62,308 bases of DNA, taken from an uncultured bacterium. GTDB taxonomy: Bacteria > Patescibacteriota > Minisyncoccia > Moranbacterales > UBA2206. Numbering within the stretch: the stretch's first letter is position 1; every line of letters starts with the position of its first letter. Both the position numbers and the translations under genes were made by a program. The stretch covers positions 1-62,308 of the forward strand of contig CAIZXS010000016.1 of NCBI GenBank assembly GCA_903937035.1, in the 5' to 3' direction. Below, piece by piece: positions 1 to 45,015 of this stretch. The notes below the pieces were generated by a model. That model was not told where the DNA came from. It saw only the letters and a list, made by a program, of their open reading frames with translations, and made no database searches.

Positions 1-117
1 ATCACATCTGCCATGCGGTGGCGCCCAATGGTCCAACATTAACTCTCGCGAATCTTTCAAAAGAAGAAATTTTTTGTCGTGCCTTATTAGCACAACTACC
101 CCATGATTTTTTATCAT
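1..117 (-). CDS. Partial CDS (first 39 aa, continues beyond the window start), NUDIX-hydrolase-like N-terminus; third cassette ORF
   Basis: ATG at 117 on the minus strand, open to position 1: MIKNHGVVVLIRHDKKFLLLKDSRELMLDHWAPPHGRCD. The pattern resembles the beta-strand/W-x-PGG lead-in of Nudix folds. It starts 18 nt after the GTTATCG box. It is absent from the ORF track because it is truncated. Confidence 0.4.
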   Translation of the reverse strand, partial: MIKNHGVVVLIRHDKKFLLLKDSRELMLDHWAPPHGRCD

Positions 118-135
118 ATTGTAAAATTTTATTTC

Positions 136-220
136 CGATAACGTTCGCGGATATGAGAAGTTGCGTAGCAATTTGGGTTGAGGCTCTGCAAGAGCCGAAC
201 CTCATATCCGCTGTTAGGCG
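136..220 (-). repeat. attC-like structured repeat, copy 2
   Basis: Minus strand: CGCCTAAC-A-GCGGATATGAG...ACCCAAATTGCTACGCAACTT-CTCATATCCGC-GAAC-GTTATCG. It has an 11-bp perfect stem (147-157/201-211), an internal GGCTCT-GCAA-GAGCC hairpin, and a core shared with copy 1. Confidence 0.65.
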
Positions 221-281
221 AGGGTGAGCGACCAAAGGGAGCGAAAGTGCAACGTCCCCTTGAGTCAAAAAAGACCGCCAG

Positions 282-707
282 TTATTTCGTAACTGTATCA
301 ATCTTTTCAACTGGAAGCCAATCATCCATATTTCCATAATTGCTTTTGTCTATTGCAAAAGATTTTACTTCTTCAGTTTTCTTCAATTCAATTAAAACTA
401 TATACCTTTTTCCAGCCCATTTTTTAAACTGGTTTTCAGATAAATTAAGTTTATCTTGATGCTTTTTTACCAAAGCAACTGATTCTTCTGTAGACATTTT
501 ATCTGAATTAAAAACACTATCGACAATAGATTTAGCTTTAACAGTACCTTCCGCATTATTATTGATAAAGAATAAAATATCGCCTTTATTAACTCTTCCA
601 TAAGGTAATTTTCTTCCAGTTGCACCACGAATAATCATGGTTTTACTTCCATCTAATAGTTTTTCTAGTTCATTTGCTTTTGCATCAAGATAAACTACAT
701 GATCCAT
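282..707 (-). CDS. ASCH/PUA-like domain protein (cassette ORF 2)
   Basis: ORF track 282..761. I prefer the internal ATG at 707 (MDHVVYLD...), which is preceded by AAAGGAGAAAACAAA. The size (141 aa) and the G-x-K-T-x-I-I-R pattern are typical of ASCH domains. Confidence 0.6.
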   Translation of the reverse strand: MDHVVYLDAKANELEKLLDGSKTMIIRGATGRKLPYGRVNKGDILFFINNNAEGTVKAKSIVDSVFNSDKMSTEESVALVKKHQDKLNLSENQFKKWAGKRYIVLIELKKTEEVKSFAIDKSNYGNMDDWLPVEKIDTVTK

Positions 708-780
708 TTTGTTTTCTCCTTTCATAGTTTTAATTGTTAATAATAAAAAAATCTTTTGCAATTAAGGTCTTTTTTGATTT

Positions 781-860
781 CGCCTAACGTATCGGCATTA
801 TCTGAAGTTGCATAGCAATTTGGGTGTAGCGTAGCGAAACCAGATATGCCGTGTTGTGCG
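781..860 (-). repeat. attC-like structured repeat, copy 1
   Basis: Minus strand: CGCACAAC-A-CGGCATATCTG...ACCCAAATTGCTATGCAACTT-CAGATAATGCCG-ATAC-GTTAGGCG. The stem 793-804/841-851 has one unpaired T. It starts 20 nt after the stop of ORF 881..1255. Confidence 0.65.
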
Positions 861-880
861 ATGTTACAAATTCAAAAAAA

Positions 881-1255
881 TTACTTACAATCTTCTTTGC
901 AACTACACTTATCTTCAAATTTTGAATTACACACGCCATCGCCACACGCCAAGCATGTCATACCAGGTTCTACTCCAAAACTATCCTTTGGAATTATAGC
1001 ATTACAATTTTCATCATGTGGTTGTGGTGACATTTTCTTAACTAATCCTGGGCAACATTGAAAAGAATCCTTGTCTATCGTGTCAACATACTTTCCTTCG
1101 CTAATACAGTCGATGGTTGGTTGCAAAGAAGATTGCTTATTGACTAAAAAATCATTATTTTGAACTGGCTTATTTTTACTAGCAAAGAACACAAAGACTA
1201 CTATTGATAAAATAATAACCGAAAGAAAGGCAATAATGATTTTTTTATTCATCAT
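881..1255 (-). CDS. Small membrane-anchored/secreted cysteine-rich protein (cassette ORF 1)
   Basis: ORF track 881..1357. The likely start is MMNKKIIIAFLSVIILSIVVFVFF (signal/anchor) at 1255. The C-terminal half carries 10 Cys (CCPG, CLACGDGVC, CSCKEDC). Confidence 0.6.
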   Translation of the reverse strand: MMNKKIIIAFLSVIILSIVVFVFFASKNKPVQNNDFLVNKQSSLQPTIDCISEGKYVDTIDKDSFQCCPGLVKKMSPQPHDENCNAIIPKDSFGVEPGMTCLACGDGVCNSKFEDKCSCKEDCK

Positions 1256-1281
1256 AAATAATTTTTTTGAATTTGTAATTT

Positions 1282-1345
1282 CGCACAACTCGTTCATATC
1301 CGAAGTGTTTTCGGATATTGTACATAATATTGCTAAATTTGTGAA
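1282..1345 (-). promoter_or_regulatory. attI-like site plus outward (cassette-directed) sigma70-like promoter
   Basis: Minus strand: TTCACA (1345-1340), 17 nt, TACAAT (1322-1317). This is followed by a perfect 9-bp hairpin ATATCCGAA/TTCGGATAT (1296-1318), then GAACGA-GTTGTGCG (1289-1282). The CGGATAT/ATATCCG arms resemble the stem of repeat copy 2. Confidence 0.4.
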
Positions 1346-1387
1346 TATTATGTACACTTTATTTATGCTTAAATTATAGCAAAAAAG

Positions 1388-2206
1388 GTGATGGACGTCT
1401 ATTTGAAAAAATTAGAAGACGAACTTAGATTGAGGAGATATAGCCCAAAAACTATTGATTCTTATCGTACATGTGTCGCTAGCTATCTAAAGACTAAGCA
1501 AAAGGATTTTGAAATTGTTGATGTTGATTCTATAAAACAATACATATTGTCGAAAATAGATGATGGTAAGTCATCTCAGACGACCAATCAGCACTTGCAA
1601 GCAATTAACTTTTTCTGCTGGAATGTTTTGAAGTTTCGGGGAAAAATCGATATTCGCTTTGCCAAGACCCCCAGTAAATTACCGATTGTATTGTCGCGAG
1701 ATGAAATTGGAGAAATATTATCAGTAATTGCCAACGAAAAACATAATTTGATGATAGCGTTGGCGTATTCTGGGGGATTGCGGGTTAGTGAAGTCATCAA
1801 CCTGAAAGTTAAGGACATCTGTTTGTCCGAGTTAGTCGTACATATCAAGGACGCAAAGGGAGGCAAGGATCGGATAACGCTTTTACCGGAAAAGCTAATT
1901 ATTAATATTGAAAAAATAATTGTAGGCAAAAATCTTAACGAGTATGTTTTTGCCAGTGAGCGTGGGGGGCGATTAACCGAAAGAACCGCCCAAAAAGTTT
2001 TTGAAAACGCTCTAGAAAAGGCGGGGATTAAAAAAGAAGCTACGTTTCATTCTTTGCGGCATAGTTTTGCTACACATCTCTTGGAAAATGGTGTCGATGT
2101 GCGATACGTGCAAGAACTGCTAGGGCATGCTAATATTAGAACGACTCAGATTTACACTAAAGTGACAAATCCCGCATTAAGAAAGATTAAAAGCCCATTA
2201 GAATAG
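1388..2206 (+). CDS. Tyrosine site-specific recombinase (Xer/IntI-like, short form)
   Basis: SAM-like N-terminal domain (YSPKTIDSYR). Catalytic motifs LRVSE (Arg), HSLRHSFATHLL (H-x-x-R), LGHANIRTTQIYTKV (His, Tyr). GTG at 1388 or ATG at 1391. Confidence 0.9.
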   Translation: MMDVYLKKLEDELRLRRYSPKTIDSYRTCVASYLKTKQKDFEIVDVDSIKQYILSKIDDGKSSQTTNQHLQAINFFCWNVLKFRGKIDIRFAKTPSKLPIVLSRDEIGEILSVIANEKHNLMIALAYSGGLRVSEVINLKVKDICLSELVVHIKDAKGGKDRITLLPEKLIINIEKIIVGKNLNEYVFASERGGRLTERTAQKVFENALEKAGIKKEATFHSLRHSFATHLLENGVDVRYVQELLGHANIRTTQIYTKVTNPALRKIKSPLE

Positions 2207-2215
2207 CCTAATTTT

Positions 2216-4000
2216 ATGAAAAACATTAGAAATTTCTGCATAATCGCCCATATTGACCATGGAAAGTCCACTTTGGCGGACCGAATGTTAGAAATAACAA
2301 AAACTGTTGAAGCGCGCAAGATGAAAGAGCAGTTGCTCGATCAGATGGATTTGGAGCGCGAACGGGGGATTACGATCAAGATGCAACCGGTGCGAATGGA
2401 ATATGCTGGGCATATTTTGAATTTGATTGACACTCCAGGGCATGTTGACTTTGGTTATGAGGTTTCGCGTTCACTTGCGGCTGTTGAGGGGGCGGTGGTT
2501 TTGGTTGATGCTACGAAGGGCGTGCAAGCGCAAACACTGGCTAATCTCTATCAGGCGATTGAGCATAACTTGGAAATCATTCCCGTGGCCAATAAGATTG
2601 ACTTGCCAAACGCTGATGTGGAAAAAACTAAGGCTGAGATTATGCATATTATTGGTTGCAAGAAAGAAGATATTTTGGAGGTATCGGGTAAGACTGGCGA
2701 GGGCGTGGACAAATTGCTGCAGCGAATCGTGGAAGTTGTGCCTGCGCCGAGTGGCGATGAAAATAAGCCATTGCGCGCACTTGTTTTTGATTCTAAATAT
2801 GATATTTATAAGGGAGTTTTGGCTTATGTTCGCGTAATTGATGGCGGAATTTCAGCCGAAGAAGAAATTTTAATGCTGGCAACTGGCGCCAAAAGTGATG
2901 TGATTGAAGTCGGTTATTTCAAGCCAGATTTTCAAAAAACTCCAAAAATAAAGGTGGGCGAAATTGGCTATATCGCAACTGGTTTCAAAAGTGTGGAATA
3001 CTGCAAAGTGGGGGATACAGTCACCATTTCCAAATTTGAAAAACAAATTGAAAAATTGCCTGGTTATCGTGAAGTTAGTCCGATGGTCTATGCTTCTTTC
3101 TATCCGACATCTGGTGATGATTATAATTTAATGCGCGATGCCCTTTCTAAATTGAAGTTGAACGACGCTGCTTTTGTTTTTGAGCCAGAGAGTAATTTGG
3201 CCCTTGGTCGTGGTTTTCGTTGCGGGTTTTTGGGACTGCTTCATCTGGAAATTATCCAGGCTCGCTTGGAAGCAGAATTTGAACTGAGCCCAACCATCAC
3301 CACACCTGGCGTTGTCTATGAAATTCAGCTGACTGGCAAAAATGAAGAAGATCGCTTGAAAGTCTATTCACCGTCAGAATTACCTGACCCATCCGCAATT
3401 GAGGCAATCTTTGAGCCCTACGTTAACTTGGAGATTATTTCTCCATCAAATTATTTGGGAGCAATTATGGAAATGATGCAAAATACACGAGCTGAATATC
3501 TTGATACAGAATATCTCAATAGTGAACGGATGATTTTGAAGTTTAACTGTCCCTTAACGGATGTAATCACTAATCTGCACGATGATCTCAAGAGCGCTTC
3601 CTCTGGTTATGCTTCAATGAACTATGAACTTTCTAACTACCGGGCCAATGATTTGGTTAAATTGGATATCATAATCGCCGAAGAACGAGTAGAAGCGTTT
3701 TCACGGATTGTTCCTAAAATTTGGGCTCATAGTGAAGGCAAGCGGATTGTCGAAAAACTGAAGGATTCTATTCCGAGACAAAATTTTCAAATTGCTATCC
3801 AAGCTGCGATTGGTGGAAAGGTGCTGGCACGCGAAACTGTGAAAGCTTTTCGCAAAGATGTGATCAGTGGGCTTTATGGGGGAGATATTACGCGCAAAAG
3901 AAAGCTTTTGGAAAAGCAGAAAAAAGGCAAAAAGAAGATGAAAAACATCGGCAAAGTAACCATCCCTTCTGAAGCTTTTCTGGCTGTATTGAAGAAATAA
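2216..4000 (+). CDS. lepA: Translation elongation factor 4 (LepA)
   Basis: NFCIIAHIDHGKSTLADR, DTPGHVDF, NKIDL, and the characteristic LepA C-terminal domain; 594 aa. Confidence 0.95.
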   Translation: MKNIRNFCIIAHIDHGKSTLADRMLEITKTVEARKMKEQLLDQMDLERERGITIKMQPVRMEYAGHILNLIDTPGHVDFGYEVSRSLAAVEGAVVLVDATKGVQAQTLANLYQAIEHNLEIIPVANKIDLPNADVEKTKAEIMHIIGCKKEDILEVSGKTGEGVDKLLQRIVEVVPAPSGDENKPLRALVFDSKYDIYKGVLAYVRVIDGGISAEEEILMLATGAKSDVIEVGYFKPDFQKTPKIKVGEIGYIATGFKSVEYCKVGDTVTISKFEKQIEKLPGYREVSPMVYASFYPTSGDDYNLMRDALSKLKLNDAAFVFEPESNLALGRGFRCGFLGLLHLEIIQARLEAEFELSPTITTPGVVYEIQLTGKNEEDRLKVYSPSELPDPSAIEAIFEPYVNLEIISPSNYLGAIMEMMQNTRAEYLDTEYLNSERMILKFNCPLTDVITNLHDDLKSASSGYASMNYELSNYRANDLVKLDIIIAEERVEAFSRIVPKIWAHSEGKRIVEKLKDSIPRQNFQIAIQAAIGGKVLARETVKAFRKDVISGLYGGDITRKRKLLEKQKKGKKKMKNIGKVTIPSEAFLAVLKK

Positions 4001-34097: not shown

Positions 34098-34505
34098 TTG
34101 ATGAGCAAGCTCAAAAGTTTTCTAATCGAACATGAAATGAAACTGGTGCTGGTGACCGGATTTGTCTTAGTGGCGCTCATATCCTTTCAATTTGGCAAGA
34201 TTGAAGGCAAAAAAGGCCAAAGCAAGCCAATTGTGATTGAAAAGACGATAGAAGTGGCCAAAATTGACCAAGGAGGCACGCCTACCGTGGCAGGAGCAAG
34301 TACACCAGAAAGCACCAAAAACCCCACTGAAGCGAAAATTTTAGCCCCCAATTGCGCCTACGTCGGAAGCAAAAGCTCCAACAAAGTCCATCTGCCGACT
34401 TGCCGCTATGCCAAAACAATCAAACAGGAAAACCTCGTTTGTTTCAAGAGTCTGGATGATGCTGTGAAGCAGGGGAGACTGGCGGATAAGACGTGTATAA
34501 AATAA
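34098..34505 (+). CDS. Membrane-anchored protein with C-terminal Cys motif (Ada-Zn/sunset-like)
   Basis: TM helix. C-terminal CAYVGSKSSNKVHLPTCRYAKTI...CFKSLDDAVKQG...KTC. Confidence 0.5.
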   Translation: MMSKLKSFLIEHEMKLVLVTGFVLVALISFQFGKIEGKKGQSKPIVIEKTIEVAKIDQGGTPTVAGASTPESTKNPTEAKILAPNCAYVGSKSSNKVHLPTCRYAKTIKQENLVCFKSLDDAVKQGRLADKTCIK

Positions 34506-34512
34506 AAAATAT

Positions 34513-34650
34513 TGTCATCCTGAGCGAAACGCAGTGGAGTCGAAGGATCTGCCATAAATTATCCTAGGCTAAACTATGATAGCAAAACATACGATAACCA
34601 CCAGCAGATCCTTCGACTGCGTCCGAGTACGGACTCCGCTCAGGATGACA
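34513..34650. repeat. MITE-like palindromic element, copy a
   Basis: Termini TGTCATCCTGAGCG...CGCTCAGGATGACA. Inner boxes GTCGAAGGATCTGC/GCAGATCCTTCGAC. Central TACGATAA. Confidence 0.75.
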
Positions 34651-34699
34651 TTCTAAATTTAAAATCTCGTAATTAATTATTTTATTAAAATAAACATTT

Positions 34700-39645: not shown

Positions 39646-40104
39646 TCATCTAAACCTCACTTTCTTATACTTCAAAAGAAAATAAAGCAAAAAATAAAAA
39701 ACTAAAGCAATCACAATTGAGACAATAAAAAATCCGACAAAAAATGGTGTGAGGATTTTGAGAAAAATTGTTTCGGTGAGAAAAAATTTCCAGCCTAAGC
39801 TATAAGTATTCCAAAAACTACTTGTAAGCGATTCTGGACTAACATGAAAAACTAAACCACCGAAAATAGCAGCCAAGGGCAAAACAATAAAAGTCGTCCA
39901 CATATTACTCGCCAAGACTCCAGCTGTCGCCGAAAGACGATTAAAGCGCAAAAAATAGGCAGTAAGAAGTGTCGTTCCAATGCCTTCGCCCGGCATAATG
40001 CCCCAAAACACTCCCAAAGCAAAACCCGCCGCGACTTTGTGCGGAGTGTCATCAATTAAAAAAAACTTCTTTATGTATTGTTTGGTTTTTGTAATGTAGC
40101 GCAT
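39646..40104 (-). CDS. DUF2062-family membrane protein
   Basis: DTPHKVAAGFALGVFWGIMP...LASNMWT. Confidence 0.7.
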   Translation of the reverse strand: MRYITKTKQYIKKFFLIDDTPHKVAAGFALGVFWGIMPGEGIGTTLLTAYFLRFNRLSATAGVLASNMWTTFIVLPLAAIFGGLVFHVSPESLTSSFWNTYSLGWKFFLTETIFLKILTPFFVGFFIVSIVIALVFYFLLYFLLKYKKVRFR

Positions 40105-40120
40105 AAAAATTTAAAAATAG

Positions 40121-40291
40121 TGTCATCCTGAGCGAAGTCTGTAATCAGACGCAGTCGACCGCGTGCCGCCTTAGCTTTAGCGGTGGAGCAAGGATCTACT
40201 TTCCAATATCCAAGTCGCTACTATTTTTTTTAAAGCCTACGATAATAGTAGGTAGATTCTTCGACTTCGCTCCGCTACGCTCAGAATGACA
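40121..40291. repeat. MITE-like palindromic element, copy b (right arm degenerate)
   Basis: The left arm (40121-40200) carries a 32-nt insert. The right arm is GTAGATTCTTCGACT...CTCAGAATGACA. Central TACGATAA. Confidence 0.75.
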
Positions 40292-40305: not shown

Positions 40306-41430
40306 TTAACCCTTCTTCACCACTAAACCACTCGTCTTTTTATCTTCAATTTTGGCTTTTTCAATTTCCTTCTTGACCGGCGCTGGCAAAAGTTCAGTAA
40401 TATTTTTGAGCGCGGTTTTGTCGAGTTTTAAGACCTCCTGCCACCTTCCTAGAGGCTCTAGGATCGCTTGAATCTTTTCTTCGTCATATTTGTAGGTAAC
40501 GCGTAGACTCCTCGCTATAATGCCCTGACTGCCAAATACTCGTTCGACGCCTTCTTGTCCCATATACGCTACAATATCTCCTTGAATCTTCGCCAAGCGA
40601 TCTTTCGTGAGTGACATGGCTGATTTGAGATCAATATATTCGTCGATTAGTCCAGCAATCTCTTCTGTATCAATTTTTCTCGCTTCTTTGAATTTATGTC
40701 TCCACATTGGACAGATATTTTGATAGCCACACCAATCGCAAAGTGGTGAAATCGTTGGTTCGAATTTTCCCTCCTCAATCAGCTTAATCATCTCGAGAAA
40801 CACTGCCTCATTTTCTTTAAGTTGTTCTTCAGTGCGAGACGCTGAAAGTTTCATGCCGTGTTTCAAAAAATAGAGACTAACCTTTAATTTGCCCAAATTT
40901 TTTCGCTCCTCGGGATAATAGGAAAGAAAAGCGGCCAAATAGACTGAGAGCTGCATATCACCCTCGACACGATCTTGCGTGGGCATTTTTTTAGCTGTTT
41001 TATAATCAATAATCTCAAAACCATCTACTGTGCGATCGATGCGATCAATGATGCCAGAAATAATATGCTTATTTTCTTTCTCTCCAATCTCAATCTGAAA
41101 TCGTGATTCCAAATTCACAATATTAAAATCAGCCGGATTATTTTGCCTGAAATAATCCTGAATAATTTTCACACCCTGCACAAAAGCAGCGCGTTCTTCT
41201 TCAGGAGAATCAAAAACAGCTGGGTTCCAAGAATTGGAAAAAAACTCCATCGCTTGTTCTAGATTGGGGGAGAGGATGCCTGGGGTGTGGATGAATTTCA
41301 TTGTCGAATGCAAAATCGTCCCAAACACGGCTTCCTTGGATTTAGGTGTCTTGATTCGATCAATTTGCTGATACTTATACTTCAATGGACAGCTTTTATA
41401 GGTATCAAGGGCTGAATATGAAATACGCAT
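40306..41430 (-). CDS. PD-(D/E)XK nuclease (RecB/AddB/Cas4-like) with C-terminal Cys cluster
   Basis: ISYSALDTYKSCPLKYKY N-terminal Cys, IIDRIDR...EIIDYKT (D...E-x-K core), C-terminal CDWCGYQNIC. ATG at 41430 is preferred over the TTG at 41460. Confidence 0.8.
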   Translation of the reverse strand: MRISYSALDTYKSCPLKYKYQQIDRIKTPKSKEAVFGTILHSTMKFIHTPGILSPNLEQAMEFFSNSWNPAVFDSPEEERAAFVQGVKIIQDYFRQNNPADFNIVNLESRFQIEIGEKENKHIISGIIDRIDRTVDGFEIIDYKTAKKMPTQDRVEGDMQLSVYLAAFLSYYPEERKNLGKLKVSLYFLKHGMKLSASRTEEQLKENEAVFLEMIKLIEEGKFEPTISPLCDWCGYQNICPMWRHKFKEARKIDTEEIAGLIDEYIDLKSAMSLTKDRLAKIQGDIVAYMGQEGVERVFGSQGIIARSLRVTYKYDEEKIQAILEPLGRWQEVLKLDKTALKNITELLPAPVKKEIEKAKIEDKKTSGLVVKKG

Positions 41431-41545
41431 AAGGCTTATTCTTAGGCTATTTAGCCTCAATATTATAGCATAATTGCTAAAAATTTGACAGATTCACCAA
41501 AGAGGCTATACTTAAAGCATACTAAATTGGTATGCATTAAAGATT

Positions 41546-41929: not shown

Positions 41930-41962
41930 TGTAGGTACTTGCGCATTTGCCTAAAAAAACCA

Positions 41963-42140
41963 TGTCATCCTGAGCGAAGTCTGTACTCAGACGCAGTCGA
42001 AGGATCTACCAACCGTAACCCATAGCTTTCTATTCAATAGCAGGGCTTACGATAATGGAAAGTAGATCCTTGCTCCACCGCTAAAGCTAAGGCGGCACGC
42101 GGTCGACTGCGTCTGATTACAGACTTCGCTCAGGATGACA
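41963..42140. repeat. MITE-like palindromic element, copy c
   Basis: The left arm is TGTCATCCTGAGCGAAGTCTGTACTCAGACGCAGTCGAAGGATCTAC. The right arm (42061-42140) is the exact reverse complement of 40121-40200. Confidence 0.8.
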
Positions 42141-42165
42141 AATTTAATTCAAGCGTGTAAATCCT

Positions 42166-44862: not shown

Positions 44863-45015
44863 AGAATAGTTAGAAAAATAGAATAATAAAAAATTAAAAA
44901 CCACCATTCTAAAATTCGTTTTATACGAGAGGGAGGTGTGGTTTTTTGGTTGCTGGCGTCCCTTCGGGAAATATTGACCGTGTCGCACAATGTAACTTTT
45001 GCGACACTGCCTGTT

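Follow-up and report, generated by a model that had tools for sequence, protein, structure and literature searches.

Positions 1388 to 2206 of a 62,308-nucleotide (nt) stretch of DNA from an uncultured bacterium of the Patescibacteriota (order Moranbacterales; GenBank assembly GCA_903937035.1, contig CAIZXS010000016.1), referred to here in its full length as the window, encode a short tyrosine recombinase whose gene diverges from an array of small genes separated by palindromic repeats. Comparative analysis indicates that this locus is most probably the platform end of an integron-like element of the sedentary, chromosomal type, in a Patescibacterium of the Moranbacteria type, and that its integrase would work without the I2 helix, the additional domain of the integron integrases (IntI). 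The element is integron-like by all the comparative criteria that we applied, a conclusion that is largely supported by genome comparison and in which the recombinase is the putative catalyst. It is carried by the anatomy of the locus, the strict co-occurrence of the recombinase gene with the repeats, the covariation in the repeat stems, the boundaries of the cassettes, and the gain and loss of cassettes between strains, all of which are directly observed. Since the domain that defines IntI was looked for and is absent, we regard the system as an integron variant but not the recombinase as a member of the IntI family.

The recombinase and the additional domain

The additional domain defines integron integrases in software and textbooks and is the basis of the intI_Cterm profile; it is held to let a tyrosine recombinase use folded single-stranded attC sites safely and, to our knowledge, is found in every integron integrase described so far. 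The initial annotation of the locus, made from the sequence alone, had pointed to an enzyme with the full R...H-x-x-R...H...Y catalytic set and an IntI1-like C-terminus that appeared to lack the IntI-specific insertion, given an interval of 58 residues between the GKDR and HSLRH motifs, about 40 fewer than in IntI1. These observations are borne out. An exact count gives 58 residues for this interval against 100 in IntI1 of plasmid pAX22, and about 42 residues of IntI1, corresponding to the additional domain with the I2 helix, have no counterpart in the recombinase. The BLASTP alignment with IntI1 (31% identity) contains a gap of about 43-47 amino acids (aa) at the position of the additional domain, and phmmer aligns the recombinase with VchIntIA (2a3v) in two stretches (residues 5-182 with 5-186, and residues 195-271 with 241-317), leaving VchIntIA residues 187-240 unmatched. 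In the AlphaFold model of the recombinase, which was built on 73 homologues and is of high confidence (predicted local distance difference test score, pLDDT, of 92), the position of I2 is occupied only by a short beta turn (residues 179-197). By the alignments with both integrases and by the structural model, the IntI additional domain is absent from the recombinase, and neither offers any sign that it is present after all. No relative bearing the additional domain was found among the close homologues either. One outlier, P0136 (324 aa, 49% identical), carries an insertion of about 45 aa exactly at the position of the domain; the insertion looks unrelated, the IntI motif KYP...W.W was not found in it, and it may have been acquired independently at the same structural hot spot.

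All catalytic residues were located in the open reading frame (ORF), namely R132, K157/K160, H221-x-x-R224, H247 and Y256, at the motifs RVSE (132), GKDR (159), HSLRH (221), LGH (245) and IYT (255). The C-terminal sequence IRTTQIYTKV...IKSPLE aligns with VSTTMIYTHV...VRSPLD of IntI1, the tail IKSPLE also aligns with VLSPL of VchIntIA, and residues S269 and P270 are the same in every sequence of a small alignment with IntI1 among them. The protein contains the Phage_integrase domain (Pfam PF00589, E-value 6.7e-44) along with a SAM-like N-terminal domain. Gene callers place the start at ATG 1391 and the homologues are 270-271 aa long, so that the GTG at 1388 probably adds one spurious residue. 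Homologues number 7551 at E<=1e-20, the best 120 of them being 73-95% identical to the recombinase, and the gene is, judging from these matches, real and conserved. The wider family comprises 2178 clusters (E below 1e-30, clustering at 50%), nearly all of which were matched in a single stretch. No close relative was detected in viral contigs, where the best match is 44% identical.

The recombinase falls short of the curated thresholds of both IntI profiles, TIGR02249 (215.5 bits, cutoff 265, matched in two pieces) and NF011946 (130.9 bits, cutoff 435), as well as those of the Xer profiles XerA_Arch (NCBIfam; 216.9, a near miss at a cutoff of 220), XerD (183.4, cutoff 329.6) and XerC (177.7, cutoff 335). 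In pairwise phmmer comparisons it scores 143 bits with IntI4, 146 and 133 bits with XerA and 90 bits with XerD; the corresponding scores in profile searches are 246, 247 and 226, and 169. Thus, by both measures, the enzyme is equally near to IntI and to archaeal XerA and far from XerD; IntI1 and XerA are more distant from each other (113-115 bits). The best structural match of the model in a Foldseek search is VchIntIA (2a3v; E-value 2.5e-17, template modelling score 0.78).

In a neighbour-joining tree of 29 sparsely sampled sequences (266 shared columns, 500 bootstraps, counted on bipartitions), IntI1 and VchIntIA are joined with 100% support to a clade of enzymes without the additional domain, which contains candidate-phyla integrases, a Chryseobacterium plasmid enzyme and some contig-borne relatives. 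IntI is excluded from this clade with 89% support, placing the recombinase outside the IntI clade proper; XerA joins next (95%), and the canonical candidate-phyla Xer proteins group on the side of XerD. The enzymes without the domain appear to form the sister clade of IntI, an assignment that is provisional because the sampling is thin and the method simple. The earlier characterization of the enzyme as a minimal Xer-type recombinase is accordingly apt in part only, given that this small tree places it next to IntI rather than with canonical XerC or XerD.

The cassette array, its repeats and its turnover

The association between the recombinase gene and the repeats was followed through 80 loci from Patescibacteria metagenome-assembled genomes (MAGs), obtained by a scan of genome collections and assigned to Moran-, Wolfe-, Lipton-, Kuenen-, Kerfeld- and Shapirobacteria and to Paceibacterota, with some records bearing plainly wrong automatic labels. 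An nhmmer profile seeded with the two repeats of the window, which is specific but overlooks divergent or decayed copies, converged on 115 copies. Every one of these lies upstream of the recombinase gene (235 kb of sequence), none was found in the 461 kb downstream, and 114 share one orientation, on the strand opposite to the gene. Each of the 42 loci that extend 2 kb or more upstream contains the repeat, which across about 50 species keeps a strict position and orientation with respect to the gene. At 27 of the 80 loci, the contig ends within 500 nt upstream of the gene, as expected if assemblies break in variable, repeat-rich arrays. The profile gave no matches in the rest of the window and none in 451 kb of unrelated (dif) loci, and Rfam families have no matches in the array. 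In 747 kb around distant relatives, there was a single marginal match which, by eye, is a true distant member of the family. This repeat (TGCTAAC-AGCGTATATGTG...CACATATACGC-AAAAC-GTTAGGCG; positions 4921-5240 of L216, a 246-kb IMG/VR contig) is of the same type and is located upstream of a recombinase of 267 aa with just 35% identity; the system may reach past the close clade, or else this "viral" contig may be a misfiled cellular fragment.

In the window, the components of the platform are the following:

1388-2206, plus strand: tyrosine recombinase gene, IntI-like, without the additional domain (I2); 271 aa from ATG 1391, 272 aa from GTG 1388
1373-1401, minus strand: predicted Pc-like promoter; -35 box TAGACG (1401-1396), 17-nt spacer, extended -10 box TG-TATAAT (1378-1373)
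1317-1356, no strand assigned: perfect 13-nt inverted repeat (arms 1319-1331 and 1344-1356), TGTACATAATATT, 12-nt spacer, AATATTATGTACA
1278-1318, minus strand: putative attI with a dif-like core, ACTTCGGATAT (1306-1296), GAACGAG (1295-1289), TTGTGCGAAAT (1288-1278)
788-1288, minus strand: cassette 1, starting with TTGTGCGAAAT; ORF from 1252 to 881; ends in attC-like repeat 1
777-864, minus strand: attC-like repeat 1 (nhmmer E-value 4.9e-17; folding; covariation)
142-787, minus strand: cassette 2, starting with TTAGGCGAAAT; ORF from 725 to 282, 147 aa, no Pfam match; ends in repeat 2
131-221, minus strand: attC-like repeat 2, R'' CCTAAC ... R' G^TTATCGGAAAT (nhmmer E-value 7.4e-17; fold z-score -3.6 to -3.9)
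1-141, minus strand: start of cassette 3, cut by the window edge; a NUDIX cassette in L083, a contig of the same genome (100% identity)

No other site in the region matches a promoter better than the Pc-like element, which is predicted from its match to the consensus and from its conservation. It points into the array and overlaps with the recombinase gene at its start, and the motif TGCTATAAT is conserved in related loci of the Moranbacteria type. The attI has a 7-nt centre flanked by 11-nt arms that are imperfect inverted copies of each other, the predicted crossover, G|TT, lying at the border of the right arm (between 1289 and 1288); by this layout, it has the architecture of a Xer-type core site. 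Its left arm belongs to a 9-bp hairpin (1296-1304 with 1310-1318; fold z-score about -5), its core is kept in about 60 loci, and the whole region from the crossover to the gene is conserved across loci. In a second subfamily, the core reads AGTTCGCATAT-AAACGAG-TTATGTGAAAT on the array strand, and the types of the attI and repeat boxes co-vary with the integrase subfamily. The inverted repeat at 1317-1356, which also holds a second promoter-like site on the minus strand (TTCACA/TACAAT) and whose counterpart in related loci has half-sites resembling an R box, AATATT(C)GCA, may serve attI as an accessory region for binding or regulation.

The two palindromes of the window, each about 90 nt long, open with ...NNNNAAC and close with GTTNNNNGAAAT, which is the consensus of the R'' and R' boxes of integron attC sites, and the cassettes each begin with TTNNNNGAAAT. 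Repeat 1 reads ACATC-GCAC-AAC, A-CGGCATATCTG-GTT, hairpin, CCCAAAT, hairpin, CTTC-AGATAATGCCG-ATAC, G^TTAGGCGAAAT. The general layout is ACATC-NNNN-AAC, A, L'' (about 11 nt) GGTT, hairpin 1, TC(C/A)CCCAAAT, hairpin 2, ACTTC L', (A/T/G)(A/T)AC and G^TT-NNNN-GAAAT, the two internal hairpins being variable, with a length from R'' to R' of 75-200 nt (median 127). The R boxes, RYYYAAC and GTTRRRY, are conserved and match the core sites of tyrosine recombinases. The L''/L' stem shows compensatory changes at 10 of 11 pairs, with a covariation of 0.319 compared to a mean of 0.155 for shuffled alignments, none of 500 shuffles reaching the observed value, and 0.06-0.13 for slid controls; the paired fraction of 69% is an underestimate because a one-base bulge in a subset of the copies shifts the register. 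An asymmetric 1x4 internal loop (A versus NNAC) beside the R boxes is nearly invariant, and by eye the extra unpaired bases (ATAC versus A, with a G/A bulge in some copies) are on the L'-R' arm. The repeats fold stably on both strands, the bottom strand folding slightly better (-16.9 and -22.0 versus -14.3 and -19.4 kcal/mol). In long repeats (for example L043 1498-1697, L057 2656-2847 and L010 4898-5090), the internal hairpins are enlarged and hold extended -10 motifs similar to TGATATAAT along with AAGGAG, so that some cassettes may supply their own promoter for the next one.

If the crossover lies within the R box, a cassette retains its own first bases, and these are expected to pair with the R'' box that closes it. 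The R' tetranucleotide of a site is fully complementary to the R'' tetranucleotide of the next site in 15 of 33 adjacent pairs, compared to 6.5% of random pairs and 7% within the same site; part of the failures is accounted for by missed intermediate sites or by a 5-nt variable part. In the window, the R'' box of repeat 2 (GCCTAAC) is complementary to the start of cassette 2 itself. Pairing between R'' and R' of the same site was also considered and was rejected, the variable tetranucleotides pairing with the neighbouring site. The repeat-to-repeat intervals have a median of 932 nt, and in 101 of 110 the longest ORF is on the array strand. The encoded proteins include glyoxalases, MazG, NUDIX, methyltransferases and restriction-modification (R-M) systems, contents typical of integron cassettes. 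Cassette 1 encodes a Cys-rich protein of 123 aa without Pfam matches, in which an N-terminal hydrophobic stretch is likely to be a signal peptide. The ends of this cassette (850-887 and 1255-1292) are complementary over 38 nt at 89%; in other cassettes, R-box pairing extends over 7-12 nt.

Comparison of strains reveals turnover next to attI. The 100-kb contig L083 is identical to the window over positions 1-2300, and its array runs through 12 co-oriented ORFs up to the MurJ gene; between positions 3600 and 10000, the array has a GC content of 0.31-0.36 compared to 0.38-0.44 in the flanks, and its genes run against the presumed direction of replication. A related strain, L001, is 90.6% identical to the window from position 1278 onward and unrelated before it. 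This edge is the cassette-side end of the attI R' arm, beside the predicted G|TT at 1289/1288, the matching bases between the two being explained by the conserved GAAAT and by similar R' boxes; the attI-cassette junctions read AACGAG|TTGTGCG in the window strain and AACGAG|TTATGGC in L001. The two strains share the far flank at 87% (87-90% identity in the flanks overall) and the distal cassettes at 86% (those of 106/110 aa, MazG-like and DUF5680); a glyoxalase cassette, 95% identical, is present in both, one internal dCTP-deaminase cassette differs, and the proximal cassettes are wholly unlike. Sharing between arrays is seen in a 2.1-kb block encoding a HaeIII-type endonuclease and a C5 methyltransferase (L002 3782-5878 and L064 3767-5861), which is 95% identical in two loci whose integrases share just 57.5% identity; the block starts about 25 nt past the attI crossover and ends at the stop codon of the methylase. 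Proximal turnover, an internal cassette indel and cassette sharing between arrays together make up what is, by genome comparison, the pattern of a sedentary chromosomal integron, with insertion at attI, old cassettes in distal positions and horizontal exchange of cassettes. The initial annotation had raised the possibility that the enzyme handles the flanking cassettes; the cassette behaviour it presupposed is seen in the genomes, and catalysis by the enzyme is suggested by the strict association.

We infer that the recombinase is the catalyst, that its cassette substrate is single-stranded and that the outward promoter is active. The recombinase gene diverges from promoterless, co-oriented, mostly single-ORF cassettes on the other strand, with a predicted extended -10 promoter, analogous to Pc, and attI between gene and array. 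In the scheme that we propose, the enzyme would bind the R and L boxes of the folded cassette site and the duplex attI, strand exchange at G|TT would insert new cassettes beside the promoter, and excision would take place between repeats, in the manner of integrons. Covariation in the stem favours a folded substrate, whether single-stranded or cruciform; the orientation of the ORFs relative to attI, together with the conservation of attI up to G|TT, points to a crossover in the R' box; and if one strand is used, it would be the bottom one (the plus strand of the window). A crossover in R'', on a top-strand hairpin and thus in a mirror image of the classical geometry, was considered in view of the arm on which the extra bases lie, and was rejected: in all loci, conservation of the attI hairpin extends as far as G|TT and, by our reasoning, cassettes would insert opposite to the observed orientation. 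The central regions of the simple sites in the repeats are, by our own reading of the sequences, 6 and 8-10 nt long, compared to 7 nt in attI, and this mismatch argues against plain duplex-by-duplex recombination of L'-R' with attI. Given the lack of I2 and the extra bases on the R'-L' arm, the choice of strand and the block of second-strand exchange must work differently from integrons; these roles might be played by the ACATC/GAAAT mismatch and by the 1x4 loop conserved on the cleaved arm, and a half reaction like that of XerC on the CTX phage would be an alternative. More tentatively, and with somewhat less than even chances in our estimate, hairpin-type cassette recombination needs no I2 at all, and the system is a living relative of a pre-I2 stage of integron evolution.

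A dif-like site and alternative explanations

Two features outside the element bear on the possibility of a housekeeping role:

2216-4000, plus strand: lepA, a conserved chromosomal flank outside the element, marking a fixed position in the Moranbacteria-like lineage
44980-45007, intergenic: dif-like site, an 11-6-11 inverted repeat, GTGTCGCACAA-TGTAAC-TTTTGCGACAC, at the gene-orientation switch

Both flanks of the array have a GC skew of +0.15, with negative values confined to the array itself, and skew of the same sign on both sides indicates that the locus is not at the terminus. The genes of the window switch from the plus to the minus strand at 44.4-45.2 kb, where the cumulative skew peaks and where the dif-like site is located, 43.7 kb from attI; the site is unique in the 806 kb of sequence searched. 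Similar sites (RYGTCGCACAA-TRTAYM-TTTTGCGACRY) are widespread in metagenome contigs. In three low-GC contigs (L104 1303-2864, L114 8336-10078 and L134, two of them near gyrA), a canonical XerC/D-like recombinase of 313-321 aa is encoded 0.6-1 kb from the site, a gene-beside-site arrangement resembling XerS/difSL. These proteins score best with the XerD/XerC models (248-258 bits), are only 33-38% identical to the studied recombinase and come from Patescibacteria that include Shapirobacteria, a group in which the array-linked enzyme occurs as well (L048). The presence of a XerC/D-type enzyme at dif-like sites in these groups suggests that the radiation has a Xer/dif pair distinct from the array system. 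The attI itself was considered as the chromosomal dif and rejected, because the skew does not switch at the locus and a more convincing dif-like site lies 43.7 kb away. A regular-expression search for dif-like palindromes derived from the R-box arms returned no matches. In another contig (L157 9072-10287), two inverted dif-like sites flank a short tyrosine recombinase gene (about 35% identity), which looks like an invertible or mobile module.

Several observations weigh against an integron-like platform run by this enzyme. In all characterized cases, recombination at attC requires I2, which has been called essential (PMC7790495, PMC8138268), and recombination by the enzyme studied here is deduced from genomic association. 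The tree that supports the kinship with IntI is a neighbour-joining tree only and is sparsely sampled. In the 12-ORF array of L083, several junctions have no recognizable repeat and distal repeats are truncated or decayed; nor was a recognizable repeat found at the distal end of the R-M block shared by L002 and L064. Across lepA-linked loci, the recombinase is about as conserved as LepA, which fits a core function better than a dispensable integrase, and the attI R' box has TTGTGCGA in common with an arm of the dif-like site at 44980. The last two observations make a second role at dif conceivable, and the recombinase could, by this resemblance, also act there.

This brings us to the explanation, rather unlikely in our estimate, that the enzyme is the chromosome-dimer resolvase of its lineage, wholly or in a dual role, and a member of the "Cand" subgroup, and that the cassettes are hitchhikers akin to integrative mobile elements exploiting Xer (IMEX), which mimic a dif half-site; the resolvase would act on its own dif-like site beside the gene, as XerS on difSL, or at the dif of the terminus. 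Such an assignment would agree with the view that Xer-related recombinases of candidate phyla form a group presumed to substitute for Xer (PMC8138268), with the XerA score barely below the cutoff (216.9 versus 220), with the dif-like core of attI, whose R' arm TTGTGCGAAAT matches the dif-like arm TTGTGCGACAC at 44980-45007 in 8 of 11 bases, with the LepA-like conservation, and with the window showing just one tyrosine recombinase. It is countered by the skew of the same sign on both array flanks, away from any switch, by the location of the orientation switch and of the 11-6-11 site 43.7 kb away, and by the pairing of that type of site with canonical XerC/D-like enzymes in other Patescibacteria contigs, Shapirobacteria having both families. 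The initial annotation had itself named the case that would speak for a housekeeping enzyme, namely a single-copy gene always beside lepA, with no repeats; we find lepA following the gene in just 18 of the 80 related loci and repeats in all the 42 informative ones, so that the context is not fixed in this manner. Nor is the gene single-copy throughout, two MAGs having two paralogous loci of different subfamilies each (L009 and L053 in CAYTIK01; L029 and L074 in JBAQNP01), with repeats upstream wherever sequence exists, bin contamination being possible. Furthermore, small promoterless single-ORF units, covarying hairpins and an outward promoter are features of integrons and not of IMEX.

Another explanation is that the repeats are terminators, elements of the repetitive extragenic palindromic type or RNA motifs of a hypervariable island, which would have a recombinase gene beside it by coincidence. 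They do lie between ORFs and fold stably on both strands, the long variants have promoter-like and Shine-Dalgarno-like motifs, and a function as recombination sites is proposed from sequence. We nevertheless consider this very improbable: chance proximity is hard to reconcile with the strict position and orientation relative to the gene in about 50 species, synteny is lost where attI has its G|TT crossover region, the complementarity between R' of one site and R'' of the next makes sense only for units joined at the R box, and the RYYYAAC and GTTRRRY boxes fit tyrosine-recombinase core sites, with no Rfam match. There is, finally, a slim chance that the cassettes are moved by another enzyme encoded elsewhere, for instance a classical IntI with the additional domain, the gene studied here being a relic or a regulator. 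In favour of this, I2 is required for classical attC recombination (PMC7790495), and the window and the loci span just part of each genome; against this, the gene is intact, highly conserved and adjacent to the repeats in all 42 informative loci, its close homologues include no relative with the additional domain, and the type of the attI and repeat boxes tracks the integrase subfamily.

Elsewhere in the window, an unrelated repeat family, TGTCATCCTGAGCGAAGTC...GACGCAGTCGAAGGATC, is present at 34496-34662, 40104-40269 and 41946-42152. Two 149-nt inverted copies flank an ORF (40306-41460) for a PD-(D/E)XK nuclease with a DUF7376 tail, and the whole may constitute a unit, mobile or invertible, close to the terminus.

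Implications and comparison with known systems

The IntI insertion has been called essential for integron function (PMC8138268), and integron integrases are stated to have innovated by acquiring I2, with intermediates lacking and with a proposed Xer-like ancestor exploited by single-stranded elements (PMC7790495). If I2 is indeed dispensable here, the system would supply the missing intermediate of that scenario, and integrons would extend to a very large, hitherto integron-free radiation. The proposed transition from Xer to IntI becomes testable with extant proteins, and there is a natural system in which to ask whether I2 is necessary for hairpin recombination or is one solution to the problem of strand choice. 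In tiny-genome, host-dependent organisms, such a platform would serve the exchange of genes for R-M systems, nucleotide-sanitising enzymes and small secreted proteins. IntegronFinder-like tools would overlook these elements or call them integrase-less attC clusters, and integrons of Patescibacteria would be under-counted. In a search of PMC and bioRxiv, we found no report of integrons, attC arrays or clusters of attC sites lacking integrases (CALINs) in Patescibacteria, and no description of integron integrases without the additional domain. The protein family is already known; its link to a cassette platform is new as far as the literature could be searched.

Among the systems to which the platform can be compared, the pdif modules of Acinetobacter plasmids likewise consist of discrete gene units bounded by Xer-type sites, but these are inverted duplex XerC/D sites served by the host XerCD, and we know of no adjacent dedicated integrase, hairpin repeats or single insertion point in them. 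XerS/difSL of streptococci and XerH/difH share with the platform a single recombinase encoded beside its own target, but have one terminus site of 28-31 bp and no cassettes; in the contigs analyzed here, the XerS-like arrangement belongs to the canonical candidate-phyla Xer of 313-321 aa, not to the studied recombinase. Closer in mechanism is the CTX phage, an IMEX, for which a Xer-type enzyme without I2 recombines a hairpin that mimics a duplex dif-like site with the chromosomal dif-like site; the folded single strand is integrated at dif1 by XerC alone and then resolved by replication, and the exploitation of Xer by such elements has been proposed as the setting in which integron integrases originated (PMC7790495). 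Tandem accumulation of elements at the site is possible in both systems. However, IMEX are autonomous elements of several genes, similar to phages or plasmids, that rely on the housekeeping XerCD acting at the dif of the terminus, whereas the units of the platform are single ORFs with a family-specific repeat, and its site is off the terminus, beside a dedicated recombinase gene and with an outward promoter.

Archaeal XerA (5hxy, 4a8e), along with the NCBIfam family NF040815 ("site-specific tyrosine recombinase/integron integrase"), has the same size and domain layout as the recombinase, aligns with it in one stretch and gives scores similar to those obtained with IntI. XerA, however, acts alone on one duplex dif for dimer resolution, with no cassette array or hairpin repeats described, and in the neighbour-joining tree lies outside the group formed by IntI and the clade without the additional domain. 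The most extensive likeness is to sedentary chromosomal integrons such as the superintegron of V. cholerae (VchIntIA/IntI4), and to the class 1 system of IntI1. As in these, the integrase gene diverges from a co-oriented promoterless array, an outward promoter and attI lie beside the gene, the cassettes end in palindromes with RYYYAAC and G|TTRRRY boxes and contain glyoxalase, MazG, NUDIX and R-M genes, and strains differ in the proximal cassettes while agreeing in the distal ones. The enzyme shares the SPL(D/E) tail with integron integrases, has VchIntIA as its best structural match and belongs to what is provisionally their sister clade. Unlike integrons, the platform has an enzyme without the I2 helix (about 42 aa) that scores under the curated cutoffs of the IntI hidden Markov models, an attI that is dif-like and partly hairpin, and a host among the Patescibacteria. 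Unlike classical attC sites, its repeats have long conserved blocks (ACATC, CCCAAAT, ACTTC and GAAAT) in a three-way-junction layout, and carry their extra unpaired bases on the R'-L' arm instead of the R''-L'' arm, where in classical sites such bases are read by I2.

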